Assembly (NCBI GenBank): GCA_020348925.1
Contig: CP070758.1
Coordinates: 2,309,688 to 2,373,687 of the forward strand
DNA from: Gemmatimonadota bacterium
Lineage (GTDB): Bacteria > JBHIER01 > G020348925
DNA: 64,000 bases
Direction of reading: 5' to 3'
Shown here: positions 3 through 41,603 of the stretch, in pieces
How positions within the stretch are numbered: the stretch's first letter is position 1
How the letters are laid out: each line of letters begins with the position of its first letter
The notes under the pieces: generated by a model
What the model saw: only the letters and a program-made list of their open reading frames with translations
The model's database searches: none
Told to the model about the DNA's origin: nothing
Position numbers and translations under genes: made by a program

Positions 3-1523
3 ATCACCGGTATTGATATTCCCGCCGGTGGAACCTTTGAGATCGTCTTCAGAGTGACTCTTGATGTGGAAGTTCCAACCAATGTCACGCAGATATGCAA
101 CCAGGGGAGAATCCACGATCTGCCCGACGAAAACGATGAGCCCTCGGACGATCCCAGTACCCGTCAGATCAACGATCCGACCTGTCTCGAGGTTGCTCAT
201 GAAATTGAGGTGTGGGATCCTGAGATTGAAGCCTTCATGGTGGCCCTGGATGTCAACGGTGGTGGGTTGGTTGGTGGTGATATCGTTGAATATACTGTAA
301 CCATGACGAATTTGGGCCCCTATGATGTCTTTACCCTCAATTTCTACTGTCCGCTTCCGGATCACACGGAACATCTCACTGTCACCGGCATACCCTTCGG
401 GACCGTCGATATCTCACTCCCGGATATGGTCTTCATAACGGGCATGCCCCTCAGCGTTGGTCAGACCATTGAGATTGTATTTTCGGCACAAGTGGTGTCA
501 TTCCCGCCCGAAGGCGTTGCGGAGATTTCCTGTCAGGGTTGGGTCGGAAATATTCCCGAAATGGAGGATGAGTACACGGACGATCCCGCCACACCGGAGG
601 AGCACGATCCGACGGTACTCACCTTGGATTCGAACGGGATGAAATGCGATATCAACGACGACGGTGAGGTAACCATAACCGATCTCTTTATGCAGCTCAG
701 GCATATTACGTACGATGTGGAACTGACAGGAGACGAATTCTGGGCTGCCGACTTCAATGGCGATGAGACCATCAATATCATCGATCTCATGAGCTGCATC
801 AATGTCTCTGTGGGAAACACGCCGAAGCGCGGAGAGCCGGGCATCGAGATGTCCCTGGCCGATGACATCGCCGTTGTCCACAATGTCGTTTCGGTGCCCT
901 GCCAGTTGCGAACGACGCTCCCGGTGGCTGGAGCTTGGTTCAGACTGGACTACGACCCGACACGCCTCACGCCGGGGCCGGCACAATTGACAGAACAGAG
1001 TGCTCACATGGCTCTTGCTCAGAGAGATGTCGGTCATTCCCTCTGGATGTTGGTCTACAGCATGGAGGGGGAAACGATTCAGGCGGGAAATGCACCTCTC
1101 GTCTCGGTTCCCTTTCGGAAGGCCCAGGATCTCGACGGAGAGACGGTGGTCAGAATCGACGAGGCGATCGCTTTTCTGCCGCTCGGGGAGGCGATCATCC
1201 TGGAATCCGATTCGCGCGTGATCTCATTGAAATCGACACTCCCTGAAGACTTTGCCTTGGAACAGAACGTGCCCAATCCGTTCAATCCCGAGACGCGCAT
1301 CAGGTACCGGCTGCCCCATGAGGCTCATGTCACCCTTGAAGTGTACAACGTTCTCGGACAACGGGTCATTACTCTTGTCGACGAAGAGCAAACCGCTGGT
1401 GATCGAACGGTATCGTGGAATGGTATCGATGACAGCGGCATCCAAGTTCCAAGTGGAGTCTACTTCTATACCATTACGATGGGTGAATTTTTAGCAACGA
1501 AGAAGATGGTCTTGGCGAAATAG
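3..1523 (+). CDS. 5'-truncated secreted modular protein: DUF11-like repeats, dockerin-like, cohesin-like, and T9SS type-A/FlgD-Ig C-terminal domain
   Basis: Frame is open from position 3 (ITGIDIPAGGTFEIVFRVTLD...). DUF11-like GDIVEYTVTMTNLGP and DDPxT..DPT motifs. Duplicated Ca-loop CDINDDGEVTITDL...ADFNGDETINIIDL. Cohesin-like VSVPCQL..VAGAWFRLDYDPTRL. C-terminus FALEQNVPNPFNPETRIRY...YNVLGQ..SGVYFY..TKKMVLAK. Confidence 0.85.
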   Translation: MTGIDIPAGGTFEIVFRVTLDVEVPTNVTQICNQGRIHDLPDENDEPSDDPSTRQINDPTCLEVAHEIEVWDPEIEAFMVALDVNGGGLVGGDIVEYTVTMTNLGPYDVFTLNFYCPLPDHTEHLTVTGIPFGTVDISLPDMVFITGMPLSVGQTIEIVFSAQVVSFPPEGVAEISCQGWVGNIPEMEDEYTDDPATPEEHDPTVLTLDSNGMKCDINDDGEVTITDLFMQLRHITYDVELTGDEFWAADFNGDETINIIDLMSCINVSVGNTPKRGEPGIEMSLADDIAVVHNVVSVPCQLRTTLPVAGAWFRLDYDPTRLTPGPAQLTEQSAHMALAQRDVGHSLWMLVYSMEGETIQAGNAPLVSVPFRKAQDLDGETVVRIDEAIAFLPLGEAIILESDSRVISLKSTLPEDFALEQNVPNPFNPETRIRYRLPHEAHVTLEVYNVLGQRVITLVDEEQTAGDRTVSWNGIDDSGIQVPSGVYFYTITMGEFLATKKMVLAK

Positions 1524-1766
1524 AAGTGAAAAAGATTAGAGGGTTTCTTTAACATTAATATTGGAGAACAGGGAGAAAGGCCCTCAGGTTTTTCTGGGGG
1601 CTTCTCCCATTTCCGTTCCTGAATGTTTCGAACAATAGAGACGTATTGTATTGAATACGAGGTTGGGTTCAATTGAAGAAAGAGGGTCTTTATGGATGTG
1701 AGGCCCGATTTTTTCATCGGTAGGAGGAATAGTACAGGAGCCTTTGTGAAAAGGGAGGCTAACACG

Positions 1767-4700
1767 ATGCGAAAAACAGTTTTGGGTATCTTTTTCTTTT
1801 TCATTGTGGCAGGCAGCGGTATTATCGATCATGGAATCGCGCAGGTTCAAAAGAATCCCAACGATTATCTTCAGGATGCGACACTGTCGGTGGAGTCTGA
1901 AGCCGGGATCCCTGGGAGTACGGACAATGTGGTTTCCATCTTCATGAATAATGGGGTGTCCGTGTACGGGGTCCAGTTCCGACTGGCATACAATCCCCAA
2001 GTGCTGGATGTGACTGATGTGACGCGGACAACCAGAACGAATCATGTCATCATTTTTGGATGGGGTGAACCCGAGCCCGGAATTGTCGAAGTGGCCATTG
2101 CCGATGTCTCCGCCCCTGTCGCAGGGACCTCAGGGTCGATTGCCGATTTTCACTTTGACGTACCTCCGAGTGTCCGCTGCGGTGATTTCGACATGACTTT
2201 GTCCAATGTCATCATCACGGATGTCTCAGGAGACTCTCTCGCCGGAGGATTCGACTGGTTTGACGGCGTGTTCAGCATCTCCCTTGCGGGTCGTGAAATC
2301 GCCCTATCGGATACAGAGCATAATTTCGGGCTGGTAAATACTGGGAGCTCTGCCCAGTGGGATCTGACGATATACAATGATGGTGAAGATCCCTTGGAGG
2401 TTACGAATATTGTTTCCTCTCACCCCGATTATACTGTGGACATGATGAGCTTTTTCGTCGGTTCCTGTGATAGTCAACAGGTCGAAGTCACTTTTTCTCC
2501 CGCTGCTGGTGGGATCATTGCAGGTCAGTTGACGGTTTCGAGCGATGATCCTGATGAACCGACAGTGCAGGTCAATCTGACCGGCGAGGGATGTGTCCCT
2601 CCGGAAATAGATACGGATTCGGTCTCTGTCTACTTTGGGGAGGTTCCTCTCGGCGGGTTTGCCGATGCAACGATCATCGTGTACAATCTCGGCTGCCAGA
2701 CACTCGATGTGGACGATGTGGATATTACCGGGGCGGATGCGATGCAATTCAGCATTGAGAGCGGGGGTGCGCCCTTCTCGGTTCTGGCGGGTCAGAGCGA
2801 GATTATCGAAGTGAGATTCAGCCCGACATCATGCGGGGCGCAAACGGCTCAGCTGGAGATCGACAGTGATGATCCTGATGAGGGGACAATTATTCTTCCC
2901 CTGACAGGAGATGGGACCTCCGTACCAAATATTGCTGTGACTCCTCTCACCGTGGACTTCGGGGTCGTTGATGTCGGCAGTGTCGTCGACACGACCATTA
3001 CTGTCGAAAATACAGGCTGCCTGGATCTGGTTGTGGACGATGTGAGCATTGACGGACCTGATGCCGGGAATTTTTCAATAATTTTTGGCGGGGATCCTTT
3101 CACCCTGAATTACGGTGAATCCCATGATATCCAAATACAGTTTGAGCCCACGGCCGGGGGATCGAAAAGCGGCGCGAGAAATCCTCTTCTGGCCAAGAAC
3201 GCCACGCTGCATGTGCAGAGCAATGATCCTGACCAGGGCGTGACGGATATCCCTTTGGCCGGCACTGAGTGTGAATATCCGGACATCCAGCTCAATCTGA
3301 CGGATGTGGACTTTGGTGTCGTCAATATGCCCCAATGGAAGGATACGACCATTGTGGTTTCCAACGACAGTTGCCAGACGCTGGATGTGGGAGTAACAAA
3401 CGTTGTGGGAGATGATGCCGATAATTTTGACATAATCGGTGGCGGCGCTCCCTTCTCAGTGGCCACCGGGAATACGCATAACATCGACATCCGGTTCACT
3501 CCCTCCTCGGACGGTCCGAAGAACGCCGTCCTGCAAATCTTCAATACGGCGCCAGGCAAGAGTCCTGCAAATGTCAATCTCAGCGGTGATGGATGTTCGC
3601 AACCGGACATCGATGTTATTCCTGATGCCGGGGACTACGGCGTCGTTGACATCGGGTCTTACGCGGACAAGAGCTTTTATGTGCATAATCTGGGGTGTCA
3701 GACGTTGGAGATCTCATCGATAGATCTTGGCGGAGACGACCCCACTCAGTTCTCAATTCTCGGGGATGATTCCTTTTCGCTTGCCGAGGGTGATTCGCAG
3801 GAGGTCGTGGTGCGGTTCGAACCGACGTCACCGGGGGCAAAAAACGCCGTGATGCAGGTTCACAGCAATGATCCGGACGAGGGGACGTTTAATGTCGATC
3901 TGATCGGTGGCGTGTGCGGAGTTCAGGACATCGCAGGCAATCCCCTGTCCTGGGATTACGGCAAGGTCAATCTGGGTGACGATGGGGATAAGATCTTCAC
4001 TGTTTCGAATGTGGGCTGCCAGAGTTTGACGGTCACCGGGACTGCACTCGTGGGAGCGGATAGTGACCAGTTCTCCTACTTCAGCGGTGAGGGCGGTTTC
4101 ACCCTGGGGCAGGGGGAGACGCACGATATCGGGATCCGCTTTTCACCCACATCGGGCGGAAACAAGAATGCCACATTGCAGATCAACAGTGACGATCCGG
4201 ATGAAGCGACGGTGGAAATCGACTTGACCGGAGAGGGATGTGAATCTCCGGATATAGAAGCGGAACCCATCGTCTGGGATTTCGGAGAGGTGAACGAGGG
4301 GGCCTTTGCGCAGAAGATCTTCACGATCTCGAATGACAGCTGTCAAACATTACATGTCACGGCCACGGATCTTGTGGGGGGCAATTCTGAGTTTACGTTC
4401 GTGAGCGGGGGAGGGGAATTCTGGGTGGTTCCCGGAGGAACGCATCAGATCAGAATCCAGTTCGCCCCTGAATCTGGAGGGACGAAGAGTGCCATTTTAC
4501 GGATTCACAGCAACGACCCTGACGAAGATCCTTTTAATATTCCCTTGGATGGTGAGGGGTGCGAGGCTCCGGACATTGATGTGAATTTCACCTCTATCGA
4601 TTTTGGCGCGGTTGACGGTGGGCTGTCGGTCGATACGACCGTCACTGTTTCCAACGACAGCTGTCAGACACTGCAGGTGACCCAGGCGACCATAACAGGA

Positions 4701-7700
4701 GCTGATGCCGAGGAGTTTGAGGTCGTCGTGGGGGGAGGGGGATTCCAGGTTCCTCAAGGACAAAATCAGCCCGTTGTAGTCCGTTTCGCGCCTGTGAATC
4801 CCGGGGCGAAAAATGCGATCCTGAGAATTACCAACAACGATCCTGATGAAGGCACGAAAGACATTCCCCTGAGCGGTTTCGCGAACGCCCCTGATATTGA
4901 GCTTTCGGCGACGAGTCACAATTACGGCAACGTGAATTTGGGCGGTTTTGCCGATTGGGTGCTGGTGGTGAGTAACGTTGGGAATAAGAATCTTAGTGTT
5001 TCCAACATCGTCTCCAACAGTGCCGATTTCGTTATCACGTCTCCGGTCTCTTTTCCGGTCGTGATCGCGGCCTCCGGGAATGTCAATGTCACCGTCCGAT
5101 TCACACCATCGACAGGGGGAACTCGGGTGGCAAATCTGACCATCACGAGTAACGATCCGGATGAACCGAGCCGGAACGTTTCCTTTACAGGTGTGGGCTG
5201 TGTTCTGCCGAACATCACCGTCGATCCGACCTCGTATAATTACGGCAAGGTCGCCCTGGGCGGTTATAAGGACAAAACGTTCGTTGTCTCAAATATCGGT
5301 TGCCAGAATTTGAATGTATCTTCCACAAGTATAACTGGGCCTGATGCCAGTCGTTACACCATATCCAGTGGCGGTGGCGCCTTCACCTTGGGCAAAGGGC
5401 AGACACGGAATGTCGTTATCCGTTTTGCACCGGTGACGGGAGGGAGTAAAACGGCCATCTTTCAAATCGTCAGCAACGATCCGGATGAGGATACTGTGAA
5501 AGTGACGTTGCAGGGTGAGGGATGTGTGAGCCCCAATATCGTCGTCGACCCGACCACCTGGGATTTTGGTACCGTGAATGTGGGGAGTTTTTCTGATATC
5601 ATCATCATCGTGTCGAATACAGGGTGCCAGGACCTCGTCGTGAGTGGAGCTAATCTCGTCGGAGGGAACCCTGATCAATTTTCCATTCGGAGTGGGGGGG
5701 GTGGTTTTACCGTATCCAGCGGCCAGACGCGAAATATTGAGGTCCGCTTCAGTCCGACCTCCGGTGGGATTAAAAACGCCGGAGTCCAAATTCTGAGCAA
5801 TGATCCAGACCAGGGTGGTGTGATCGTCACCCTGACGGGTAGGGGGTGTCCCTTTCAAGATATTTCCATCACGCCGGCATCCTGGGACTTCGGGATTGTT
5901 GACCTCGGAAATTATGAAGAAAAAACATTTGTTGTCTCCAATCAGGGGTGCCAGGATCTGCAGGTATTGGGGACAAATCTCGTGGGGGCGGATTCCGATC
6001 ATTTTGACATCATGAGTGGTGGAGGTGCTTACAGTATTGCTGGAGATGATACCCATGATGTCGTTATCCGTTTTACGCCGACAACAAGCGGGGCAAAGAG
6101 TATTGTTCTGAGAATCACATCTGATGATCCTGATGAGGGGACATACGATGTGACGATAACAGGGGGTGTTTGTTCTCATCCTGACATTGAAACGAATCCC
6201 GGTTCGTGGAATTACGGCTCTGTTGCGATCGGGGACTATGAGGAAAAGACGGTCACTGTTTCGAATACGGGGTGTCAGGTTCTGTCGCTGACCGGCATCG
6301 GTCTCGTGGGAGCGAATACGAACCAGTTCAGTATCACCAGCGGTAATATCACGATTGATCTCAATCACGGTGAGACGCACAACGTCGTGATCCGGTTCTC
6401 CCCGACTTCAGAGGGCACAAAGAGCGCTGGGCTCAGGATCAGTTCAAACGATCCTGACGAGAGCACCCTCACCGTGCCTCTCAACGGATATGGTTGCGGT
6501 GATCCCGATATTGATGTCGATCCGGCTTCTGTGAGCTATGGGAGCGTGAATGTTGGGAGCTCCAGTGATCGGACCATTACGATCTCCAATGTGGGGTGCC
6601 AGGTTCTCAACATTTCGGCGACAACTCTCACAGGGACCCATGCGACGCAATTCGACGTCGTAAGCGGGGGAGGAGGGTCAACGATTGTTAGTGGTGGTGC
6701 CCGGAACCTCATCGTGCGCTTCACACCAACTTCCGGTGGGGCGAAAACGGCCACACTGCAGATCCTTTCGGACGATCCGGATGAGGGGACCGTGCTCGTC
6801 CCGCTCACGGGCTCAGGTTGTGCAGAGGCCAACATATCCCTGAATCCGCTGGTGAAGAATTATGGAACCGTGAGTGTCGGCAGCAGCAGTCCTGGAACGT
6901 TTGTCGTTTCGAATACAGGGTGCCAGGATCTGCAAGTAACCGCCACAACAATTTTGGGGACAAACCACACTCAGTTCCAAATCGAGAGTGGGGGAGGGTT
7001 CTTCACTGTTGGGAGTGGACTGTCCCACAATATCGTTGTTCGATTTGTTCCGACATCCGGTGGTTTCAAGGAGGCCACACTCAGAATTCTCAGCAACGAT
7101 CCTGATCAAGGAGCCGTAGAAGCATCCCTCTCAGGGACTGGATGTTCATATTCGGACATCAGTGTGAATCCCACGTCTTGGAATTTCAACAGAATCGATG
7201 TGGGAAATTTCAACGAGAAAGTGTTTGAGGTGGCAAACGTTGGCTGTCAGAATCTCGTCGTATCGAGTACGAGCATTGTGGGAAGTGATCCGTCCCAGTT
7301 TCTTATTGCCGCTGGTGGTGGGGGGTTCACGCTTGGTGAGGGCCAAACCCACGAGATTCTTATCCAGTTTGTGCCGACATCGGGTGGGAGCAAAAGTGCT
7401 GTCTTTCAGATTCAGAGCAACGATCCTGACGAGAGCATTCGAAACATTTCACTGAGTGGGGAGGGGTGTCCGTACCAGGACATTTCGGTCAATCCGACAT
7501 CATGGAATTTCGGCACCGTTGACATCGGGAGTTTTGTCGAAAAAATCTTTGTGCTCTCAAATGTTGGGTGCCAGACCCTTCAGGTGACCGGAATGAACCT
7601 CGAGGGGCCCCACATGGATCAATTCTCCATTGTCAACGGTGATGGGAGCTTCACTCTTGTTGGAGGAGAGACGCGAAATGTGGTCGTTCGCTTTACACCA

Positions 7701-10700
7701 ACATCAGGCGGTGGTAAGACTGCAACCTTACGGATTTCCAGTAACGATCCTGACGAACTTGGGTTGGAAGTGCAGTTGAGTGGTGGTGTGTGTTTGGGGA
7801 CCGATATTACTGTGGATCCCACATCGTTGGACTTCGGGGTCGTGAACGTCAGCCTGGGGACACAGAGGACCGCCGTGGTCTCCAATACGGGATGTCAGCT
7901 TCTCCAAGTTTCAAGTGTAACTGTTACTGGTTCTGATGCGGTTCACTTTTCGGTAGTCAGTGGCGGAGGCTCCTTCTCAATACCTCAAGGAGAATCTCAC
8001 AATGTTATCGTGGGATTTGTTCCGTTATCCGGGGGTGGAAAAAACGCCATACTGCAAATTTTGAGTAATGATCCGGACGAAGGGACGAAAAATGTCCCGT
8101 TGAGTGGCACCGGATGCTCCCAACCGGACATTGCTGTGAACCCGTCTTCGTGGAACTACAGTGGCGTAGCGATAGGGGACCATGCGGACAAGGTCTTTAT
8201 CGTTTCCAATGAAGGTTGTCAAAATCTCTTGGTCTCGGGAACGACACTGGTTGGACCCGATGCCTCCCAGTTTGCTATTACGGGTGGTGGCGTGTTCACC
8301 GTGGTCCCTGGCGGGGCTCACAGTGTGGTTGTGACGTTTTCTCCGACCAGTGGAGGAGTAAAAACGGCTTCGCTTCTGATCCACTCAAACGATCCTGATG
8401 AGGAGGAGTATACGGTTCCCCTAACTGGTGGTGCTCTCAGTGCTGATATTCAGCTGTCCGCAACCAGCCACGATTTTGATGGTGCCCCTATAGGGCAACC
8501 GCAATATTGGATTCTGGAGATATCGAATGTGGGTGATGGTCATCTCACGGTCACGAGCATCCTGACTGATAGGACCGATTTCATTGTGTCCTATCCGACA
8601 TTTCCCCAGATCGTTCCTCCCGGTGCATTTGTGAGTGTCGCGATTGTTTTTACTCCCTCCGTCAGCGGTCTTATTACGGGCAATTTAACTATTGCCTCCA
8701 ACGATCTCGACGAACCGACCCGCATCGTGTCACTCCGTGGTCTCGGCCTCGTTCCGGATATAGAGCTGTCTGAGACTCGTCATGACTTTGGTGGCGTGGC
8801 CGTTGGAAGCACAACACAATGGATTCTCACCGTTACGAATTCGGGCACCGGGGATTTGAACGTCAGTGCTCTCGGATCGGATAATCCTGTGTTTGCGGTG
8901 GATGTCCCGTCGTTCACGGTTGCGTCTGGCGGGAGCCGTCTTGTGACGGTCACCTTTTCCCCGACAGCGGAGGGGCTCACAACAGGGCAGATAACCGTTC
9001 GGAGCAACGATCCGGATGAACCCGTGCGCTCTGTTATTCTGACAGGAGAAGGTCTGGTGCCTGATATTGAGGTGGTAACCAGTCACAATTTTGGAGAGGT
9101 GCCTTTGGGGAACTTTGGACAATGGACGATGACGGTATCGAACATGGGTACCGGACCCCTCATCGTCAGTGGAATTGGTTCCGATCATCCGGCCTTTACC
9201 ACCAGCCCGATCAACTTTACTGTGATGCCCGGCAGCAGCTACGACGCAATCGTGACATTTACGCCGTCCCAAGGAGGGGCAGCCTCCGGCCAGATTACGA
9301 TTGTGAGTAATGATCCGGATGAAGGGATGGTCGTCGTTTATGTTCTGGGGAACGGCTTGGTCCCCGACATATCCGTTCCTGTAACAACCTATGATTTTGG
9401 AGGCGTCGATGTCGGAGATTCGACAACGTGGGATTTTAATGTGCAAAACTTGGGGACAGGTGATCTCGTCGTTACGAGCATTCTTTCGAATAAAGCCGAT
9501 TTCATTGTCGAGCCGAAGAGTTTCACTGTACCGCCCGGTGCCTACCAGGTTGTTACGGTGACGTTTTTGCCTTCGATCGGTGGACTCATCTCAGGTCAAC
9601 TTGATATCTCCTCGAGCGATCCCGACGAGCCAACGGTCGCTCTCAGTCTGACCGGAACAGGACTGGAACCTGATATCGATCTCTCGGCAACGAGCCATGA
9701 TTATAACGGAATTCCACTCGGTCAATCGGCGAATTGGATACTCACAGTTTTTAATGTTGGAACAGGCGAACTGACCGTCAACGATATTGTATCGAGCAAC
9801 GCCGCCTTCCATGTCGACATCACCTCCTTCGTGGTGATGCCCAGCGGCAGTCGGAACGTGACCGTCACACTGACTCCTCCGATGGAGGGTTCGGTGTCCG
9901 GTCAATTGACCATTTATTCCAACGATCCTGACGAGCCGACGGTGTCGGTGATGCTGAATGGAGCGGGCCTGACACCTGATATTGAGATTCCGGTAACGGC
10001 CCATGACTTCGGCAACGTTGAAGTCAATACCTCTGCTGCATGGACTCTGCTCATTGAAAATGTCGGCGGGGCAGACCTGGTTGTCACGGATGTCAGATCC
10101 GATAATCCTGCTATGACCGTCGCCCTCTCCCTGCCTTTGATTCTGAGCCCAAGGAGCAGTGAGCATGTCCCTGTAACTTTTTCCCCGACGGAAGCGGTGA
10201 CGTATGAGGGCCAGCTGACTGTGACCAGTGATGATCCGGATGAACCCAATATAACGATCTCTTTGACCGGTGTGGGCGTGGGGGTGAGTGTCCATGTGAA
10301 TAACTTTGATGTCCTCGCCTATCAGGGCGTTGTGCTCCTGCGGTGGTCGATTGGGGCCGCCCACGATTGTATGGGTTTTCACCTCTATCGCAGCGAATCT
10401 TCCGACGACGACTACGAGCGATTAACGCATTTTCTGGTACCGTTGATCGTCAATGGAAATTATACATATCGGGATGCATCAATAACTGCGGACGGGACCT
10501 ACTACTATCGCTTAGGGGCAATGGATCTCAACGGCGGGGAGGAGGATATGGGTTTCGTGGTGGTGCGAGTGGTTGGATTCACGCCGAGCGATTTTGGTCT
10601 GGCTCAGAACTATCCCAATCCATTCAATCCTGATACGCGCATTACGTATACGCTGCCTGAGAGTGAGCGGGTGACGCTGTTTCTGTATAACACCCTGGGG

Positions 10701-10865
10701 CAAAAAGTGAGGGCGCTTGTGGACGAGTACCATGCGTCAGGACGATATACAGTCCTGTGGGATGGCCGGGATGACCTCGGCCGAAAAGTTGCCAGCGGGA
10801 TCTACTTGGCTGTTCTTCGCTCAGGAACACGTCTTGATAGCAAGAAGATGATTTTACTGAAATAA
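1767..10865 (+). CDS. Giant secreted protein (~3030 aa): signal peptide, N-terminal cohesin-like domain, 25 ASH/choice-of-anchor-D Ig repeats, FN3-like domain, T9SS type-A/FlgD-Ig CTD
   Basis: SD GGGAGG before ATG 1767 (ORF track starts at 1692). Signal MRKTVLGIFFFFIVAG. Cohesin-like VYGVQFRLAYNPQVL..GSIADFHFDV..DGVFSI. Repeats of the form DFGxVxxG..xSNxG..FxPxxxG..SNDPDE..LxGxG, counted by eye. CTD LAQNYPNPFNPDT..SKKMILLK. Confidence 0.9.
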   Translation: MRKTVLGIFFFFIVAGSGIIDHGIAQVQKNPNDYLQDATLSVESEAGIPGSTDNVVSIFMNNGVSVYGVQFRLAYNPQVLDVTDVTRTTRTNHVIIFGWGEPEPGIVEVAIADVSAPVAGTSGSIADFHFDVPPSVRCGDFDMTLSNVIITDVSGDSLAGGFDWFDGVFSISLAGREIALSDTEHNFGLVNTGSSAQWDLTIYNDGEDPLEVTNIVSSHPDYTVDMMSFFVGSCDSQQVEVTFSPAAGGIIAGQLTVSSDDPDEPTVQVNLTGEGCVPPEIDTDSVSVYFGEVPLGGFADATIIVYNLGCQTLDVDDVDITGADAMQFSIESGGAPFSVLAGQSEIIEVRFSPTSCGAQTAQLEIDSDDPDEGTIILPLTGDGTSVPNIAVTPLTVDFGVVDVGSVVDTTITVENTGCLDLVVDDVSIDGPDAGNFSIIFGGDPFTLNYGESHDIQIQFEPTAGGSKSGARNPLLAKNATLHVQSNDPDQGVTDIPLAGTECEYPDIQLNLTDVDFGVVNMPQWKDTTIVVSNDSCQTLDVGVTNVVGDDADNFDIIGGGAPFSVATGNTHNIDIRFTPSSDGPKNAVLQIFNTAPGKSPANVNLSGDGCSQPDIDVIPDAGDYGVVDIGSYADKSFYVHNLGCQTLEISSIDLGGDDPTQFSILGDDSFSLAEGDSQEVVVRFEPTSPGAKNAVMQVHSNDPDEGTFNVDLIGGVCGVQDIAGNPLSWDYGKVNLGDDGDKIFTVSNVGCQSLTVTGTALVGADSDQFSYFSGEGGFTLGQGETHDIGIRFSPTSGGNKNATLQINSDDPDEATVEIDLTGEGCESPDIEAEPIVWDFGEVNEGAFAQKIFTISNDSCQTLHVTATDLVGGNSEFTFVSGGGEFWVVPGGTHQIRIQFAPESGGTKSAILRIHSNDPDEDPFNIPLDGEGCEAPDIDVNFTSIDFGAVDGGLSVDTTVTVSNDSCQTLQVTQATITGADAEEFEVVVGGGGFQVPQGQNQPVVVRFAPVNPGAKNAILRITNNDPDEGTKDIPLSGFANAPDIELSATSHNYGNVNLGGFADWVLVVSNVGNKNLSVSNIVSNSADFVITSPVSFPVVIAASGNVNVTVRFTPSTGGTRVANLTITSNDPDEPSRNVSFTGVGCVLPNITVDPTSYNYGKVALGGYKDKTFVVSNIGCQNLNVSSTSITGPDASRYTISSGGGAFTLGKGQTRNVVIRFAPVTGGSKTAIFQIVSNDPDEDTVKVTLQGEGCVSPNIVVDPTTWDFGTVNVGSFSDIIIIVSNTGCQDLVVSGANLVGGNPDQFSIRSGGGGFTVSSGQTRNIEVRFSPTSGGIKNAGVQILSNDPDQGGVIVTLTGRGCPFQDISITPASWDFGIVDLGNYEEKTFVVSNQGCQDLQVLGTNLVGADSDHFDIMSGGGAYSIAGDDTHDVVIRFTPTTSGAKSIVLRITSDDPDEGTYDVTITGGVCSHPDIETNPGSWNYGSVAIGDYEEKTVTVSNTGCQVLSLTGIGLVGANTNQFSITSGNITIDLNHGETHNVVIRFSPTSEGTKSAGLRISSNDPDESTLTVPLNGYGCGDPDIDVDPASVSYGSVNVGSSSDRTITISNVGCQVLNISATTLTGTHATQFDVVSGGGGSTIVSGGARNLIVRFTPTSGGAKTATLQILSDDPDEGTVLVPLTGSGCAEANISLNPLVKNYGTVSVGSSSPGTFVVSNTGCQDLQVTATTILGTNHTQFQIESGGGFFTVGSGLSHNIVVRFVPTSGGFKEATLRILSNDPDQGAVEASLSGTGCSYSDISVNPTSWNFNRIDVGNFNEKVFEVANVGCQNLVVSSTSIVGSDPSQFLIAAGGGGFTLGEGQTHEILIQFVPTSGGSKSAVFQIQSNDPDESIRNISLSGEGCPYQDISVNPTSWNFGTVDIGSFVEKIFVLSNVGCQTLQVTGMNLEGPHMDQFSIVNGDGSFTLVGGETRNVVVRFTPTSGGGKTATLRISSNDPDELGLEVQLSGGVCLGTDITVDPTSLDFGVVNVSLGTQRTAVVSNTGCQLLQVSSVTVTGSDAVHFSVVSGGGSFSIPQGESHNVIVGFVPLSGGGKNAILQILSNDPDEGTKNVPLSGTGCSQPDIAVNPSSWNYSGVAIGDHADKVFIVSNEGCQNLLVSGTTLVGPDASQFAITGGGVFTVVPGGAHSVVVTFSPTSGGVKTASLLIHSNDPDEEEYTVPLTGGALSADIQLSATSHDFDGAPIGQPQYWILEISNVGDGHLTVTSILTDRTDFIVSYPTFPQIVPPGAFVSVAIVFTPSVSGLITGNLTIASNDLDEPTRIVSLRGLGLVPDIELSETRHDFGGVAVGSTTQWILTVTNSGTGDLNVSALGSDNPVFAVDVPSFTVASGGSRLVTVTFSPTAEGLTTGQITVRSNDPDEPVRSVILTGEGLVPDIEVVTSHNFGEVPLGNFGQWTMTVSNMGTGPLIVSGIGSDHPAFTTSPINFTVMPGSSYDAIVTFTPSQGGAASGQITIVSNDPDEGMVVVYVLGNGLVPDISVPVTTYDFGGVDVGDSTTWDFNVQNLGTGDLVVTSILSNKADFIVEPKSFTVPPGAYQVVTVTFLPSIGGLISGQLDISSSDPDEPTVALSLTGTGLEPDIDLSATSHDYNGIPLGQSANWILTVFNVGTGELTVNDIVSSNAAFHVDITSFVVMPSGSRNVTVTLTPPMEGSVSGQLTIYSNDPDEPTVSVMLNGAGLTPDIEIPVTAHDFGNVEVNTSAAWTLLIENVGGADLVVTDVRSDNPAMTVALSLPLILSPRSSEHVPVTFSPTEAVTYEGQLTVTSDDPDEPNITISLTGVGVGVSVHVNNFDVLAYQGVVLLRWSIGAAHDCMGFHLYRSESSDDDYERLTHFLVPLIVNGNYTYRDASITADGTYYYRLGAMDLNGGEEDMGFVVVRVVGFTPSDFGLAQNYPNPFNPDTRITYTLPESERVTLFLYNTLGQKVRALVDEYHASGRYTVLWDGRDDLGRKVASGIYLAVLRSGTRLDSKKMILLK

Positions 10866-16900: not shown

Positions 16901-19900
16901 CCAGACACTTGGGAGTGGAACACAGCTGGATATCACTGTGACCTTCACCCCTTTGACGACCGACCTTGTGACCTGCACGCTGAATGTCCTCACCGACGAT
17001 CCTGACGAGGGCGTTTTGAATGTCGTCGTTACCGGCCGCGGGGTCGGACGGGGGATCGCCGTCACGGTCAGAGGGATCGGATTCGGGCCGGTCCGCATCG
17101 GCAGTTCGGTGGTCAGGACATTGACCGTGTATAATAATGGGTTGCTCGAGGCAACGGTGGATGATATTTTGTCGACCCATACCGATTTTCAGATTGTTGC
17201 TCCGCTCTTTCCGTACACCATCGGACCGCAGGACAGTGTCGACGTGACGATTGCCTTCACGCCCTCCGAACCGGGTTTGGCTGAGGGTTCCCTGAACATC
17301 GGGAGCAACGATCCGGATCAACCGCTTCTGTCCGTCACGGTACACGGTCAGGGCATCACGCCTGAGATCAACCTCTCGGCTGAGCATCACGACTTCGGAA
17401 AGATTAATGTCGGCAGTTTCTCCAACTGGGTGTTCATGATTCAAAACAGAGGGACGGCCGATCTGGCGGTCAGCTCCGTCCTGTCCGATAATCCGCAATT
17501 GACCGTTGTGTCACCGAACTTCCCCAGGACGATTCCCACGGACGACAGCTGTGGCGTCGTGGTCCGCTTTGCACCTGTGGATATGGGGCCCGCATCGGGC
17601 ACGGTGACGATCATCAGCGATGATCTCGACGAGAGCACGCTCACTGTCGCATTACGGGGTGAAGGTGTTCTTCCGGATATTGCCTTGTCAGCGTTGCATC
17701 ACGATTACGGTGAGGTCGAAGCAGGTGATACGTCCCTCTGGGTGCTGACCGTTTCCAACGTGGGAAGCGCGAATCTTGTGGTGGAGAGCATGTTCAGTGA
17801 TCACTCGGATTTTGCTGTTCTCTCACCGAGTTTCCCCCAGGTCATAGAACCGGAAGCACATGTAATGGTAACAGTGGCCTTTCGCCCCACGTCGGGTCAA
17901 GAACGGAGTGGTCGTCTGTCCGTGTACAGTGATGATCCCGACGAATCGGTGCTGGAAGTGGGCCTCACCGGACGGGGCATTGCCTCGGACGTGCATGTCG
18001 ATGTTCGGGATCATGATTTCGGTGGCGTTGTGGTGGGTGATTCGACGTCGTGGATGCTGCCCCTGCGTAACATCGGCCGGGCATCATTGACCGTTCACAG
18101 TGTGAACACGGAGGGGAAGGATTTTAATGTCGTCTCTCCAATCTTTCCGCAGACGGTTGCACCCGGACAGCATCTTGACGTTTCAATACAATTTCAGCCT
18201 TCGGACTTGGGACCTATCGAGGGAACCGTAACGGTTCTGAGCAGTGATCTCTCTGAACCGACTGTCATAATCCCTGTCCGAGGCGAAGGATTCATTGAGC
18301 CTGTTTTGCAGATCGTAGACGGTTTTGGGGATCCCGGGAGTGCTGGAAATAAAGTATCCGTCCACCTCTATACGCCTCTGGACATCAGTGCTCTTGAGTT
18401 TGGCCTCACATACGATTCGCAGGTTTTGACGATTACTGACGCGCAGCTGGGTGCTGATGCCAGCCACATGGGTATCTTTGATATCGACTTTCCCCTTGCG
18501 AACCGGGTCTTCATTCACATTGGGGATGCGGATGGGGGGGTGATCAGTCCGCGTTCAGGTACTGTAACTGAGTTCACCTTTCAGGTCGCCGCCGAAGCAC
18601 CAATGGGACAACTCCCGTTGGTGCTCACAGATGTGGTCCTCTACGAAGGCGACGGTACCCCGGTGCCGGTTGTCCCTCAAGACGGAGTGTTTACTGTTAC
18701 TCTTCCGGATATCGTCGTACCTCACCGGGTTTACGATTATGGCGATGTCTCTGTGAATCGCCCTGAGGATTGGCCGTGTCCTATGTGGAACTCAGGGACG
18801 AAGGATCTTATTATCAGCGGAATAACGGTGGATCATATCGATTTCTATACGATCGAACCGAGCTTTCCCTGTACCTTAGCGGTCGCCGAGAGCAGTCTTG
18901 TCATTTTCAGATTTGCACCCTCTGCAATCGGCCCAATTTCGGCCTCAGCAATCGTAGAGAGCAATGATCCTGACGAAGGGGCAGTCACAATTTCTCTCGG
19001 TGGCGTGGGGATCAAACCCGATATCTGCATGGGAGAAATTATTCACGATTTTGGTGACGTCCTGGCGGGTACCTCGTTCACCTGGCCGGCTCTCATAGCA
19101 AACTTGGGCAAGGGAGCATTGACGGTTGACAGTATTTTTACGGTCGGATCCGATTTTTCTGTGGAAGCGCTTACCTATCCGTTTGTTGTCATGGAGAGCG
19201 AAAGTATCTTTGTCGGTGTGACCTTTACTCCGGCTCTGGCTGGGGCGATCCGCGGAAGTCTGGTGGTTGTGAGCAACGATCCCGATGAGGAACGGTTTGT
19301 CCTTCCGCTTTGGGGTCGCGGTGTTGCTCCTGACATCGATCTGTCCGCTGTGAGCCACGATTTCGGGGAAGTTGATGTCGGTCAGATAGCCGATGAGGAC
19401 TTTCTCATTTACAACAGGGGAACAGCAGAGTTGACAATAGACTCTTTGAAAGCTCAGCCAGACGCGTTTACGTTCTTTGGGCCGGATTTCCCCGAGACGG
19501 TAGCTCCTGGCGACAGTTTCGCACTGTCGGTCTCCTTTGCTCCGACCTTCATGGGGGAGATCTCAGGCGATCTGACTCTTTTCAGCGACGATCCCGATGA
19601 AGGAGAGTTCATGGTCTTTCTCAGTGGCGTCGGCGCAGCGCCAAAGATTGAATCCTCGGCCACAAGCTATATCTTCGGACGGGTGAAGTTGGGTGAATCT
19701 GAGACGTGGGAATTTCTTATTTCGAATGTGGGAACCCGGGACCTCATTATCGAATCTGTTGAGCCTGATACCTCAGATTATGCGGTGACCGTCGAGGAGG
19801 AGTTTCCCCTTATCCTTGAGCCGGGCGAGGATATTGTGGTGGGTGTGATCTTCCAGCCCTCGGCCGTGGGGATGATCAGCGGCCGATTGATCATACGGTC

Positions 19901-26778: not shown

Positions 26779-26783
26779 TCGGT

Positions 26784-30300: not shown

Positions 30301-30419
30301 TCAAACTGGGAATATTGGATCTTATTCTTACCGAAATATTGGGAGAAGGCTCCTGCCGGCAAGATCAACAGCAAGAGGTTCAATACAAAAAGACGCCTCA
30401 CAAACATTCTACTCCTCAT
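27315..30419 (-). CDS. Omp85/BamA-superfamily barrel fused to an N-terminal HExxH (peptidase MA-like) domain and a TolB/PD40 beta-propeller
   Basis: Signal peptide then QYFGKNKIQY; LHHELVHA..WIPEGMAE; repeated PxWSPDGxxIxFxS; TPLRGYRY (Omp85 xRGY/F motif); C-terminal beta-signal YYLSLGSEF. No POTRA-like segment recognised. Confidence 0.85.
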   Translation of the reverse strand: MRSRMFVRRLFVLNLLLLILPAGAFSQYFGKNKIQYSQFEWSFIKTEHFDIYFYEGGGELVEFAAQAAEDAYQSLRSDLNYDLKNRVPIIIYKSHHDFEQTNVITSLIEEGVAGFTESFKNRVVVPFEGSYADFRHVLHHELVHAVTYDMVHGGVLESLASRQFLFQLPLWIPEGMAEFESIGWDSQSDMYMRDAIIHGYIPPLENGLYGFLAYKGGQSILRYIANRYSRRKIGEILSQIRLERNLDKALKSSIGVDVKELGRVWMRQLKKEYWPEVAQRDEPKDFAKALTNHRKDGSFFNRSPALSPKGDEIVFISDRTDYTDIYLMSAIDGRIFSRLVKGERSSGFEELHIMNASLSWSPDGKRVVFAAKSGNRDALYVVNVDKRSIEEKYILNLDRILSPSWSPQGQTLAFTGIKNGMSDIYTFDLETESLTQLLVDRHDDKDPKWSHDGAKIAFASDRHSGPEAFSDTTGFAYGQYDIYTMNADGSDILRITDDPATDISPAWSPDGRKLVFASDRTGISNLYIVDLDSAVTFPITNVLGGCFSPDWSTDGERIAFTSFSWAGWDIFVMKNPLNQRKKPESIALTPFAAGEKPALALAKNDSAAYTEKKQDADFSHFVFKPEKKKEPEDEEPIAEADTSDALQEVSFRLPNGKYKVYKYKLKFTPDIITGSVGYNTYWGFSGQTIISLSDIMGNHRFLIYTDLFYSLQNSDVQLVYYYLPKRIDFGAGIFHFRDYYYIYQNNLWFTDRMYGGTLLASYPFSKFRRVDLDLLYIGLNRELLEFGDSEIPSAFWELEGVNILSSNLSLIHDTVIWGYTGPVNGSRSQLSLQYVPDIGLNSISFIKGIGDYRKYVRIQKKYNFVFRLAGGFSDGRDPRVFFLGGMTNWAWPEYARTDVFENEDYYFAGFQTPLRGYRYYEVAGTKFALANLEFRFPLVQRLLLGWPLPLSFGEVRGSFFFDVGGAWNMNRNFKPFGYRDGTPKLDDLKAGYGIGARMGFLFALLKFDIAWKTDLTKSGSPGDPIYYLSLGSEF

Positions 30420-30660
30420 CGTCGATTCTCCTTCAGGGCGATAACAGGTATCATTGTGCGGTTCCGATCGAAAGTATAAAAAATATGTGATCACGTCACG
30501 AATGCCAGTTCTCTTGGTTGAGCAATCGAGACCTTCTCACGTCTATATATTTAAGAGGTCATTTCTCCTTAAAAAGTTTCATCGTCTTGATCAGGGGATC
30601 GCCCTTCAGGCGTAACCCATTGCTCGCTGGGAAGATATGTTACGTTTGTGCTGTCTCGTG

Positions 30661-35591: not shown

Positions 35592-35617
35592 TTCGCAAAA
35601 TCTGTTCTGCCTCAATG

Positions 35618-35646: not shown

Positions 35647-35737
35647 GGGAAAATAGGGTTTCAACGGAAAGCCTTTTCTCAATGTGTGAGGCGTCCTGGA
35701 ATTGGCTCGAAATTACTTCTTGTGTGTCCCCCGGATC

Positions 35738-36364
35738 TCATTTCGTACCAACTCGTTTCTCCTTCCCTGACAGGAGTCGCTTGATGTTCGATCGGTGCGT
35801 CAGGATGATTATTACGGGCATACAGGCCGCGAAGAGCACCATCTCAACAGGAACCTGTTGATGGAATACGGCTCGTTGTCCGACGACAACCACCAAAAAC
35901 GTCACGGATGCGGAGATGGACCCCAGGGAGACATATCGAGTCAAGAAGGTGATGGCGAGCCATACGACAACAGCACAGCCTGTGGCCAACGGAAGAAGGG
36001 CTGCGAAGACACCGGTGCTCGTGGAGACACCTTTTCCCCCTGAAAATCCGGCAAAAATCGGCCACACGTTTCCGGCGATAGTTGCCAAGCCAGCGAGTAT
36101 CTGAAGAAGCGCATGGTTCACAGGTGTTGGATCAATGCGAAGCTGCGATACATAGAGCACGGTGATGGCTGCTTTTCCGGCATCGATGGCAAAGACGAGG
36201 AGAGCCCATTTCAGACCAAGGACGCGATAGACGTTCGTCGCTCCGGCGTTGCCACTGCCGTATCCACGTACATCAATACCTTGTGCTATTCGTCCGATAA
36301 TGATGCTGGTGGGGATAGAGCCGATACTGTATCCCAGGACGAGAACAACGAGGAGTGTGAGCAT
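35738..36364 (-). CDS. plsY: Glycerol-3-phosphate acyltransferase PlsY
   Basis: GYSIGSIPT, GSGNAGATNVYR, FSGGKGVST, THRSNIKRLLSGKE. Confidence 0.95.
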   Translation of the reverse strand: MLTLLVVLVLGYSIGSIPTSIIIGRIAQGIDVRGYGSGNAGATNVYRVLGLKWALLVFAIDAGKAAITVLYVSQLRIDPTPVNHALLQILAGLATIAGNVWPIFAGFSGGKGVSTSTGVFAALLPLATGCAVVVWLAITFLTRYVSLGSISASVTFLVVVVGQRAVFHQQVPVEMVLFAACMPVIIILTHRSNIKRLLSGKEKRVGTK

Positions 36365-36409
36365 TTATGACAGTATCCCTTTCGCAGTCTCTCATGAGAT
36401 GAAAGAGGC

Positions 36410-39047: not shown

Positions 39048-39453
39048 GAATCCAAAAAACTCTTCTAAAATTCCTTTTGATAGTCAATGGCTTTTCATGT
39101 TAATTATGGAGTAAATTATGCTTTTTTTCAAAAAAATCAAGGCTTTTGTTGGGGGCTTCATCTCTCACGTTTTGAAAGTTTTCCGCATCACATTCCGAAC
39201 CCTGACGAATATTTTTTTTTGATTGTCGTTTTCATACCTTTATATTGAATCACATGGTGTGTTTGGTTGGGTGTTCAAAACACCGCTACAGGTTTGCCAA
39301 GGGAGGTGATAATTGACACCTTTGAATGTACAATGTGATGTATACTGCAAGGGTGTTTTTTATTTTGAATCGTTTCGAGATTTTTTAACCTTCATTCGCA
39401 TTCGAGAAATGATTCCGAATTGAGCGATACGATGTGTGAGGAATTTTTCATTT

Positions 39454-40908
39454 ATGCGATGGTCCGTGTCAATTCCTGTCAGTTTTTTTGTTTCGCTTAT
39501 TCTCATGAATAGCTTGATTGGTCAGACGGAACGTTTGGAAATTGTTGGTAGCTCAGGAACACCGGGCAGTGCGGGTCATGTGATGCCAATCGAATTTGAC
39601 AGTCGCCGATCACATGACTGGTCTGCGATAGAATTCGATATTTTCTTTAATACTGAGGTTTTCGCAGTAGACAGTGTTGGACGGACTCAGCTCACAAGAT
39701 GGAGCGAAATATTTCTTTGGCATAACATTCAGGATGGTATTAAAGTTATAATGTCTGATATAGATGGGCGGCATGTATTAGGTATGGGTGTGGGTCCCAT
39801 TGCTGAAGTCTATTTAGACGTGAATGAAAATGCTCAAGAGGGAACATATCTTTTGGGTTTAGCACATGCAAGATTTTCGCATCCAACAAAACCTCCGATG
39901 ATTCCTCAGGAGGTTGATGATTTGTTCACTGTTACAAAGTGCGTTGAACTCTCTGAAACCTATCATGATTTTGGATCGGTGTCAGTAGTGGATTCAGTCG
40001 ATTGGGTGCTTGAGATCTGCAATATATGTGATGACGTAGTGTTCATCTTGAGCAGTTATTCTGATTCTTTTAATTTTTTCACACACGGGCTCTCGTTTCC
40101 CTTGATTCTTCCATCTCATGATTGTCAGGAATTGGTGGTCACGTATGCATCAAAGGATTTCTACTGGACGACCGGCCGATTGGAACTTTCCGTTATTCAT
40201 CCTGCAGAACAGGGGTTGACCGTTCATTTGAGAGGAACCGGCGCACCCCAACCTGACATTATTGTGTCTTTTCCCGATTTCTGTGTTGTGCCAAATGATA
40301 CGGTCCGAATTCCAATTGATGCATTTATTCCAGAAGAGTTCGATGTCATTTCTGCATTTCAGATGGATCTCTTATTTGACAGGGAGTTGATATCAGCAAC
40401 CGATTTGCTTCGTCCTGAAAGGACCGCCCATTTAGAAATTTTTAGTTGGTCCAAAATTGATGAAGGGGTGAGAATTGTAATGAGTGGCATTAGACAGCTC
40501 ATTCGTGTTGGATCTGGTCCAATATGTGAGATACTTTTCATTTCGAATGTAAATGATGCCTGTGGACAGTCGATTGATCTTAAGTTCCGGTATGTAAAAG
40601 CAGGTGGAACAATAGATACCGGTCCCATTACTGTTGGAAAAGAGGGAATGGTTTTTTTCTCTCAAAAAGGGGATGTGAATTTCGATTGTGAGGTGGATGT
40701 GTTTGATGTTATTGGGGCCGGGCGGTTCCTTTTAGGGCTTGAAGGACCTTCCTTTTGTCAAAGGGAGACTTCAGATATTGATAACAGCGGTGAAATAGAA
40801 ATCAACGATATCATTGATATTGTTCATATAATTCTTAATTCTAGCTATCCCAACGTTAGTATCGGGCCGTCAGATCTGGCTCTCGATAGGGAGGTGAGAG
40901 TAGAATGA
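39454..40908 (+). CDS. Secreted protein: cohesin-like, ASH Ig, cohesin-like, dockerin-like
   Basis: Signal peptide. SGTPGSAGHVMPI..SAIEFDIFFNTEVF. HDFGSV..WVLEICN Ig repeat. ISAFQMDLLFDRELI. KGDVNFDCEVDVFDV..SDIDNSGEIEINDI. No T9SS-type CTD. Confidence 0.8.
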   Translation: MRWSVSIPVSFFVSLILMNSLIGQTERLEIVGSSGTPGSAGHVMPIEFDSRRSHDWSAIEFDIFFNTEVFAVDSVGRTQLTRWSEIFLWHNIQDGIKVIMSDIDGRHVLGMGVGPIAEVYLDVNENAQEGTYLLGLAHARFSHPTKPPMIPQEVDDLFTVTKCVELSETYHDFGSVSVVDSVDWVLEICNICDDVVFILSSYSDSFNFFTHGLSFPLILPSHDCQELVVTYASKDFYWTTGRLELSVIHPAEQGLTVHLRGTGAPQPDIIVSFPDFCVVPNDTVRIPIDAFIPEEFDVISAFQMDLLFDRELISATDLLRPERTAHLEIFSWSKIDEGVRIVMSGIRQLIRVGSGPICEILFISNVNDACGQSIDLKFRYVKAGGTIDTGPITVGKEGMVFFSQKGDVNFDCEVDVFDVIGAGRFLLGLEGPSFCQRETSDIDNSGEIEINDIIDIVHIILNSSYPNVSIGPSDLALDREVRVE

Positions 40909-41603
40909 AAAAAGTTCTATTCTGTTTTCTTTTCCTGATCGTGATGATGTCATCAATTCTTTTCGCGAAGGAATTGACTGACGAGAGAAAGATCTCGAAT
41001 CTGAATCAACTTTCTATTTATCTACCACAGTGTAATACTATAGTGCCCCCTTTTGAACAGACGATACGAATCAACATGGAGAACGATGTTGATGTCTCAG
41101 GCATCGATCTTGAACTGCGGTATCCGCCAGAACAATTGAGCATCATTGATGTGACTGGAACGAGAAGGGTTAGGGGTAAACCGACAGCCTATATCGATGA
41201 TCCAACGGAGGGTATCTTTCGATTCTTCTGGGCCGAGGGTATCAGTATTGATCCTGGTGCTGGTCCGATTTTCGAGATGACGGTTTCAGTTCCTGTGGAT
41301 GATATCTGCGGTGGACCTCATGAAATCAGCATAACCGATGTTGTCGTTGCAACCACGGAAGGAATTACGAGGGACGTCCTCACTGAAAATGGTGAGTTTT
41401 TCTTTCGTCGGAGAGGAGATTTTAACAGGGACTGTAAGATGGATGTTCTCGATGCCCTCTATGTCCCAATATTTATTTTTTGTCTCAGTTGCGGTCACTT
41501 CCTAACCGGGGAAGATTACATGTTGCTCGATTTCAATAATGATGGAGCGTCTGATGTTCTGGATATGTTGCACATGATTGGTTTTATTCTTCACCAACCC
41601 TGA
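40905..41603 (+). CDS. Small secreted cohesin-like + dockerin-like protein
   Basis: Signal MKKVLFCFLFLIVMMSSILFA; MENDVDVSGIDLELRYPP; RGDFNRDCKMDVLDA..LDFNNDGASDVLDM. SD GGAGGT; start overlaps the upstream stop. Confidence 0.8.
   Translation: MKKVLFCFLFLIVMMSSILFAKELTDERKISNLNQLSIYLPQCNTIVPPFEQTIRINMENDVDVSGIDLELRYPPEQLSIIDVTGTRRVRGKPTAYIDDPTEGIFRFFWAEGISIDPGAGPIFEMTVSVPVDDICGGPHEISITDVVVATTEGITRDVLTENGEFFFRRRGDFNRDCKMDVLDALYVPIFIFCLSCGHFLTGEDYMLLDFNNDGASDVLDMLHMIGFILHQP

Follow-up and report, generated by a model that had tools for sequence, protein, structure and literature searches.

A cellulosome-like complex has been predicted in Candidatus Stygibacter (Cloacimonadota) and proposed to degrade protein and non-cellulosic polymers (PMC8542988), and the cellulosome of (Pseudo)Bacteroides cellulosolvens has been called the most extensive system known (PMC5590126). 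We describe a 64-kb stretch of DNA (the window; positions 2309688-2373687 of the single-contig, 5.04-Mb, 96% complete genome of an uncultured bacterium of the Gemmatimonadota from a sediment metagenome) that encodes five proteins with cohesin and dockerin modules: one whose gene enters the window from upstream (gene 1), two giants and two small adaptors. It is in our view probable, from their domain content, that these five serve as scaffold and adaptor parts, themselves non-catalytic, of a cellulosome-like and largely proteolytic surface coat encoded across the genome and displayed by a type IX secretion system (T9SS). This reading is based on the signal-peptide-like N-termini, on the T9SS C-terminal domains (CTDs), on the presence of SprA, PorU and PorV, on the division between non-catalytic cohesin-CTD proteins and dockerin-only proteins, many of which are catalytic, and on a single dockerin recognition code.

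The sequence-only reading of this DNA had listed seven cohesins and three dockerins in the five proteins, and all ten were recovered at those places by profiles, PDB matches and one AlphaFold model. Stock Pfam profiles matched four of the ten modules at E<=0.01, two of these under the family cut-off, and gave no cohesin or dockerin match within 39436-40908. Using hidden Markov models (HMMs) trained on the genome itself, ten out of ten were detected at 44-95 bits, scores that self-matches inflate, the models having been seeded with the Pfam matches of the genome and iterated twice; the reversed set of open reading frames (ORFs) gave no match. A profile of 44 cohesins, including six of the seven local ones, matched 36 PDB sequences, 34 of which are scaffoldin or cohesin entries, and a profile of 74 dockerins, including all three local ones, matched solved dockerins. 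The AlphaFold model of the gene 1 tail (pLDDT 89, pTM 0.65) had cohesins as its 17 best matches in structure comparison (Z 11.8-16.8); its cohesin was aligned with 2VO8 (Z 16.8, root-mean-square deviation 2.1 over 129 residues) and its dockerin with 2CCL_B (Z 11.8, deviation 1.5 over 62 residues). The segments might have been modelled as generic beta-sandwiches or EF-hands, a worry raised with the sequence-only reading; the tail model resembles cohesins and a dockerin instead. A cohesin was taken to be a nine-stranded jelly-roll of about 135 amino acids like those solved, which was judged by model for gene 1 and by profile for the other six. A dockerin was taken to consist of two calcium-binding loop-helix repeats with D/N at positions 1, 3, 5, 9 and 12, a pattern displayed by the local dockerins according to profiles, alignment and the gene 1 model. 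By these comparisons the local modules are real cohesin and dockerin folds, and their calcium-dependent pairing is predicted from the known families.

Positions 10/11 and 17/18 set the specificity of dockerins, and symmetry between the two repeats implies dual binding. The genome-trained HMMs were applied to 21,155 six-frame ORFs, which gave approximate counts since N stretches split genes: 304 dockerins in 291 ORFs, 176 cohesins in 105 ORFs and 254 ORFs with a CTD, against none in reversed ORFs. By class, there were 173 ORFs with dockerin only, 62 with dockerin and CTD, 40 with dockerin, cohesin and CTD, 40 with cohesin and CTD, 16 with cohesin and dockerin, nine with cohesin only and 112 with CTD only; together, dockerin and cohesin ORFs make up 16% of the genome. 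Both repeats of the dockerins in each of the three classes mostly carry I/V-L at positions 10/11 and V-N at positions 17/18. Outside the slot that immediately follows a dockerin, 106 cohesins were found in 62 CTD proteins, and some proteins combine three to six cohesins with a CTD. Scaffoldins in the sense of non-catalytic proteins with several cohesins are present in the genome, the giants themselves bearing only one and two. The 291 dockerin ORFs fit well the earlier suggestion of a rack for dockerin-bearing proteins encoded elsewhere. In the collection searched, the family holds one other genome, of a sister genus (G001), and no further kin was found up to the phylum level. G001 contains at least 105 dockerins, compared with 0-8 in 39 unrelated genomes, and it has the same dockerin tail classes and orthologous giants. 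Among the best 150 matches, 43 of 116 more distant proteins carry a CTD by the genome-trained HMM, and proteins ending in dockerin-cohesin-CTD or cohesin-CTD were found in loci from Ignavibacteria, Zixibacteria and Bacteroidota records. The best 78 loci for the dockerin-cohesin-CTD tail came mostly from Ignavibacteria, Zixibacteria, KSB1, Calditrichota, Latescibacterota, Marinimicrobia, Cloacimonadota and Bacteroidota, a spread that would place the genome no more closely than within the FCB group. Multi-cohesin CTD proteins are, by such matches, widespread in other genomes. A separate family of 2,100-2,700 amino acids with 8-10 cohesin-like domains and a CTD was also seen in other genomes (P0049, P0079, P0109, P0111, P0121, P0123 and P0157).

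The five proteins gave no match to a catalytic family, as the sequence-only reading had it, and this extends to the part of gene 1 upstream of the window, which contains a von Willebrand A (VWA) domain and DUF11-type repeats and showed no catalytic family in the profile scan. Enzymes were found among the potential cargo. A Pfam scan of 72 of the 84 dockerin-only proteins in the fetched loci (173 in total; most of the 12 omitted are paralogs) revealed a catalytic family in 29, and the label 'enzyme-free' was consequently dropped for the system as a whole. These 29 comprise 17 peptidases (M1, M6, M14, M28, C25, S8 and S41), five glycoside hydrolases (GH13, 31, 57, 99 and GHL10), two serine beta-lactamase-like proteins, two of metallo-beta-lactamase fold, an esterase, an EEP nuclease/phosphatase and a GSDH protein. 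In 51 other proteins scanned, catalytic families were present in none of 15 with cohesin and CTD, three of 13 with dockerin, cohesin and CTD, two of six with cohesin and dockerin, and three of 17 with dockerin and CTD. The scan, which covered 108 of the 291 dockerin ORFs (72 with dockerin only and 36 of other classes), detected no cellulase (GH48, GH9 or GH5). Neither carbohydrate-binding module (CBM) 3 nor the S-layer homology (SLH) domain was detected in the five proteins or in the 15 scanned cohesin-CTD proteins, where the T9SS CTD occupies the anchor position. Judged by its modules, the system would work like a cellulosome but falls short of one in cellulases and CBMs, and its target would be mostly protein and mixed detritus, not cellulose.

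The export machinery for the CTD proteins is encoded in the genome. SprA (1,992 amino acids, 725 bits, cut-off 200), PorU (1,341 amino acids, 737 bits, cut-off 420) and a PorV-family protein (264 bits, cut-off 90) were found above curated cut-offs in the T9SS core census that had been proposed; porU adjoins a porV-family gene, and 14 PorV/PorQ-family proteins are present in all. LpxC is also encoded. GldL and GldM had no match in the genome, yet no control genome exceeded the cut-off either; with the control silent, the missing match is at most a lead toward a T9SS powered in another way. Gene 1 and both giants end in the type-A CTD expected from the sequence-only reading (Table 1), and all five N-termini are signal-peptide-like as assessed by eye and by a hydrophobicity rule. 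By analogy with the known families, the CTD proteins would, after Sec export, pass SprA with PorV, and PorU would remove the CTD and attach the proteins to the outer surface. There, they would carry enzymes and binding proteins of beta-propeller or lectin-like type, held by calcium-dependent cohesin-dockerin pairs. Rods of ASPM-SPD-2-Hydin (ASH) repeats would serve as spacers and probably double as fibres for adhesion, and the two small proteins as branching or specificity-switch adaptors.

The route of the cargo is harder to account for. In 158 proteins encoded by the genome a dockerin forms the end and no CTD is present; a folded CTD is normally required of T9SS substrates (PMC10994853, PMC9251779). 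This would favor an alternative in which no surface complex exists: dockerin-only proteins would be periplasmic or would leave by the pilus secretin, vesicles or lysis, the dockerin being a calcium-binding stability tag or a sorting signal recognised by another factor. It also fits this alternative that only one of 116 dockerin-ended genes adjoins a cohesin-CTD gene, and that the 14 PorV/PorQ-family proteins are accompanied by a secretin of PilQ type. This is the single secretin of the genome and lies in a pilM-N-O-P-Q-like gene order; with one secretin only, in a type IV pilus-like context, no separate type II secretion system was found, and the four T2SSE-family ATPases would by their size resemble PilB/PilT. 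Several results speak for a surface complex. The surface recognition positions of the dockerins are conserved and duplicated in both repeats. A CTD is borne by 80 of the 105 cohesin ORFs, and seven of the nine cohesin-only ORFs run into N stretches, so that nearly all the partners are export-tagged. Among the 14 PorV-family genes, 11 adjoin a CTD-only gene, which suggests dedicated shuttle-substrate pairs, and none adjoins a dockerin-only gene. Finally, among the 116 dockerin-ended proteins examined, 77 have a paralog, and in 26 of these 77 the best paralog is CTD-tailed (up to 69% identical over the aligned part), so that the tails look interchangeable. Weighing both sides, we consider the absence of a surface complex very unlikely. 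Signal-like N-termini were counted in 126 of 145 larger dockerin-only proteins by a crude rule (background 691 of 1,843), and a lipobox in one. A frameshift origin of the CTD-less dockerin proteins was rejected: only two of 164 show a downstream linker or CTD remnant, 152 of the 158 have no N within 600 bases, and dockerins followed by stops also occur in G001.

In 102 proteins a dockerin is followed by a CTD, and the gap between them measures 48-53 amino acids (66 proteins), 133-159 amino acids (34) or more (two), and is never under 45. The short gap is a conserved two-helix hairpin, and that of the 34 others is a cohesin of its own group. The hairpin (45 amino acids; L008:5787-5915 and 65 similar places) has an invariant Leu and a near-invariant Met, and is also found in G001. 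No known family was found for it, and its ESM Atlas leads were all below 0.9; a Foldseek search with a dockerin-hairpin-CTD model (pTM 0.49) returned FlgD, PorU, PorZ and the CTD of RemZ, and nothing for the hairpin. The CTD-less dockerin ends, the CTD-tailed paralogs and these gaps led us to a tentative idea, on balance unlikely, in which the dockerin would be a secretion tag: CTD-less proteins would bind cohesin-CTD carriers in the periplasm and pass SprA as passengers. The surface complex would then be assembled before export, with the giants among the carriers, and in proteins having both dockerin and CTD the hairpin or own-group cohesin would keep the dockerin covered in cis up to the cut by PorU. 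Some CTD-less proteins seem to be T9SS-dependent, for which other explanations have been offered (PMC9936825). It counts against co-export that T9SS substrates have been described to exit CTD-first by SprA's lateral opening (PMC10994853) and that cargo and carrier genes are not adjacent (1/116); moreover, once a 90-kDa enzyme is docked, the carrier may have too much bulk to pass, and the hairpin may simply be a spacer in which the PorU cut site is held. Among the best-ranked literature matches, in a search with most subscription journals outside its coverage, none dealt with T9SS co-export mediated by dockerins or with scaffoldins built as ASH rods.

Table 1. Cohesin-dockerin genes of the window and their modules (Coh, cohesin; Doc, dockerin; positions are those of the window).
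Feature	Position	Strand	Layout or basis
Gene 1, 3' end of a 1,686-amino acid secreted protein	3..1523	+	VWA, DUF11-type repeats, Doc-Coh-CTD tail
Gene 1 dockerin	645..812	+	Pfam Dockerin_1 E 1.1e-7; model vs 2CCL_B
Gene 1 cohesin, immediately 3' of the dockerin (post-dockerin group)	858..1178	+	Genome-trained HMM, tree, model
Gene 1 T9SS type-A CTD	1248..1520	+	TIGR04183 38.1 bits, cut-off 23
Giant 1, 3,057 amino acids from first ATG	1692..10865	+	Coh - 25 ASH/choice-of-anchor-D repeats - ~100 amino acids unassigned - CTD
Giant 1 cohesin, N-terminal tip	1893..2225	+	Pfam scan and genome-trained HMM
Giant 1 CTD	10590..10862	+	Genome-trained HMM; TIGR04183 29.3 bits
Giant 2, 3,688 amino acids from first start codon	10917..21983	+	23 ASH - Coh - 5 ASH - Coh - ASH - ~240 amino acids unassigned - CTD
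Giant 2 first cohesin	18315..18650	+	Genome-trained HMM
Giant 2 second cohesin	20286..20624	+	Pfam Cohesin E 1.3e-10
Giant 2 CTD	21708..21980	+	Genome-trained HMM; TIGR04183 34.4 bits
Adaptor 1, 490 amino acids, without CTD	39436..40908	+	Coh-ASH-Coh-Doc
Adaptor 1 modules	Coh 39547-39885, ASH 39943-40251, Coh 40273-40611, Doc 40669-40836	+	Genome-trained HMM
Adaptor 2, 232 amino acids, without CTD	40905..41603	+	Coh 41034-41357, Doc 41415-41591

The five ORFs were found at the positions of the sequence-only reading (Table 1). Its starts for the giants, 1767 and 10974, fit the signal peptides, and its start for adaptor 1 was 39454. Gene 1 begins about 3.5 kb upstream of the window. Between the group of gene 1 and the giants and the adaptor pair lie 17.5 kb of unrelated housekeeping genes, and the start of adaptor 2 overlaps the stop of adaptor 1. 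Stretches of 100 N occur 205 times in the genome and split some genes; none lies inside the window. A mis-assembled origin of the giants was not supported: giant 2 is spanned in one gap-free piece by a public-run contig (10605-21752) and has an ortholog of the same layout, and giant 1 is covered by three such contigs without gaps or indels. Because the public run is possibly the source sample, its contigs serve as a check of the assembly, not as independent evidence. Immediately upstream of the window (2291618-2306001) there are three Coh-Doc-Coh-CTD proteins of 1,333-1,491 amino acids, with differing N-termini and a common Cys-rich body of about 700 amino acids without a Pfam match; nearly identical copies of their tails, on short branches of the cohesin tree, recur at several other places in the genome, often beside N stretches. 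Among the other genes of the window, the one at 27315-30494 has a product of 1,059 amino acids that combines a peptidase-MA-like domain with a TolB-like propeller and an Omp85 barrel, and a similar TolB-like propeller protein sits downstream of porU-porV (L062:15385-18477). A XerC/D-like tyrosine recombinase is encoded at 51409-52299 amid housekeeping genes, and nothing points to a mobile element.

The giants are the two longest ORFs of the genome, giant 2 being the longest. Their repeats match NF012200 (choice-of-anchor D) in 25 stretches of giant 1 and 27 of giant 2 and are mutually 21-56% identical; three of them compared with PDB sequences gave no convincing match (best E 0.78). The ASH papers among the listed literature matches concern eukaryotic cilia and centrosome proteins, and no described role for bacterial ASH arrays was found there. 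An unassigned domain of about 145 amino acids precedes the CTD region of giant 2 (20979-21416) and matched only bacterial ESM Atlas clusters at 0.90-0.93, with low recognition. The sequence-only reading had stalks holding docking sites at a distance from the cell. This stood for giant 1, with its cohesin at the tip of 25 repeats: it would present one docking site about 100 nm out, at some 4 nm per Ig repeat. It did not stand for giant 2, in which 23 of the 29 repeats lie beyond both cohesins and the cohesins are near the anchor; here two sites would sit beneath a 23-repeat fibre.

The layout of giant 2 would fit an alternative in which the giants, as ASH-repeat rods, and the VWA-tipped product of gene 1 are primarily fibrillar adhesins or capsule fibres, with accessory cohesins that tie the fibres together or to a few partners. 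The 23-repeat outer stretch of giant 2 ends without a tip domain. Its ortholog in G001 (a 3,570-amino acid frame, 58% identity over 3,584 columns) has the same layout, with 23 repeats before the first cohesin in both, even though only 23 of the 29 repeats best match the same position and six match others; the constant count hints at selection on length, in a comparison of two genomes where the ortholog frame starts at a contig edge. The DxSxS motif in the VWA domain of gene 1 and the existence of ASH-CTD proteins without a cohesin in the genome point the same way. It argues for a larger role of the cohesins in the giants that they rank in the top quarter of the 176 by score and keep 56-57% identity in the ortholog, about the same as the repeats (orthologous fragments of giant 1 in G001 were 57% and 68% identical). 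Moreover, when 172 cohesins were placed in a quick tree, those of the giants (three) and of adaptor 1 (two) fell within one group of 48 (SH-aLRT 98) made up mostly of free scaffold cohesins, including those of multi-cohesin scaffolds. Another, weakly supported group (81) contains 30 of the 33 post-dockerin cohesins, that of gene 1 among them; the tree was built on few columns and leaves many forks open. As a primary function we consider adhesion decidedly unlikely, and as a second role it would be compatible with the proteolytic coat.

The adaptors correspond to adaptor scaffoldins in having one or more cohesins, one dockerin and no catalytic domain; an ASH domain, absent from the sequence-only reading, lies between the two cohesins of adaptor 1. 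Both lack a CTD, as had been noted, and so do their relatives P0070 (77% identical to adaptor 1, same layout) and P0002 (65% identical to adaptor 2). The dockerins of both deviate from the recognition residues of the genome, which may reflect a different specificity or, fitting equally well, lost binding; in relatives of adaptor 2 the second dockerin loop is less conserved. The dockerin of adaptor 2 (41415-41591) carries a CxxC after the first helix that is kept in both relatives. The adaptor genes have a guanine-plus-cytosine (GC) content of 42-43%, compared with 53-54% for the giants. Low GC is common to all enzyme-free genes for one or more cohesins followed by a dockerin (39-43%, GC at third codon positions 0.33-0.44, versus about 51-53% for the other classes).

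The sequence-only reading had treated the five proteins as a dedicated set, which did not hold: the adaptors are two of 16 CTD-less cohesin-dockerin proteins, are encoded 17 kb away at a different GC content, and have off-code dockerins. This also counts against a further alternative, a structural mesh free of enzymes that the two small proteins would form by polymerising on the giants or cross-linking them. Such a mesh would agree with the lack of a catalytic family in all five proteins and with the many proteins of the adaptor type (several of the 16 have two or three cohesins and no other domain), which could in principle chain head to tail. The adaptor genes are, however, unlinked to the giants and have no ortholog-level match in G001 (best 25-38% identity; G001 is 87% complete), which has both giants, and any cohesin also faces about 290 other dockerin proteins with one common code. 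A mesh of this kind is highly improbable in our estimation.

Returning to the T9SS-displayed coat, several points weigh against it. No catalytic family was found in 43 of the 72 scanned dockerin-only proteins (FG-GAP and other propellers, lectin-like or unknown), so the coat would not be purely enzymatic; the crossing of the outer membrane by CTD-less cargo has no explanation; one or two cohesins per 3,000 or more residues make the giants a poor enzyme rack; the dockerins of the two adaptors come 32nd and 35th from the bottom when all 304 are ranked; and the cohesins are diverse, their divergence (mean column identity 31%) being far above that of tandem clostridial cohesins.

If the reading is right, about 16% of this genome would be devoted to a cohesin-dockerin system, with counts above those of the largest described cellulosome, and the cellulosome principle would be extended to diderms at scale, by a mainly protein-directed system displayed across the outer membrane. 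It would offer a new cohesin-dockerin specificity for designer complexes, and a clean test of how CTD-less proteins can need the T9SS, a point raised previously (PMC9936825), to which hitch-hiker export would be a concrete answer. With the giant ASH rods, a repeat known chiefly from cilia and centrosomes could be studied in a bacterial model.

Several described systems share parts of this architecture. Choice-of-anchor D/ASH Ig-repeat proteins (NF012200, PF15780) share the repeats, which were matched in both giants. The non-cellulosomal cohesin of Archaeoglobus fulgidus (2XDH) was the best PDB match of our cohesin profile (E 4.5e-12), but this cohesin and the cohesin and dockerin proteins of anaerobic methanotrophic archaea (ANME; PMC9012536) are archaeal, without a T9SS and without an assigned role. 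Adaptor scaffoldins of the A. cellulolyticus ScaB type, or of the monovalent repertoire-switching type, are likewise small and non-catalytic, with cohesin(s) and one dockerin (PMC4959524), and differ from adaptor 1 in its ASH spacer between two cohesins. The 'planctosome' of freshwater Planctomycetes (Nemodlikiaceae) is a complex hypothesised to degrade peptides, in which a cohesin protein serves as the anchor and is joined by a cohesin-dockerin adaptor and dockerin peptidases, including M14; unlike the present system, it is small and is described with a proposed lamin-tail anchor and no T9SS CTD (PMC6461901). (Pseudo)Bacteroides cellulosolvens shares the cohesin and dockerin folds and has many scaffoldins and adaptors; its 31 scaffoldins bear 78 cohesins, and its dockerin ORFs number more than 200 (PMC5590126), counts obtained by another method than our 176 cohesins and 291 dockerin ORFs, which come from our own HMMs; it is a clostridial cellulose degrader, whereas the bacterium studied here is a diderm that has T9SS tags, and the scan of 72 plus 51 of its proteins gave no cellulase family. 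Ca. Stygibacter has a non-catalytic multi-cohesin scaffoldin of about 3,700 amino acids with a T9SS-type CTD, and signal-peptide enzymes with C-terminal dockerins that include S8 and C25 peptidases and GH57. It differs in that the named components are a few enzymes and a single scaffoldin, in which tandem cohesins occur together with CBM2/CBM3 (PMC8542988), compared with 62 CTD proteins holding 106 cohesins, ASH rods with one or two cohesins and 291 dockerin ORFs here, both systems being predictions. What would be new with respect to the described systems is an unexplained route for most of the cargo, the use of ASH rods as scaffolds, the diderm host and, by our own counts, a larger size.

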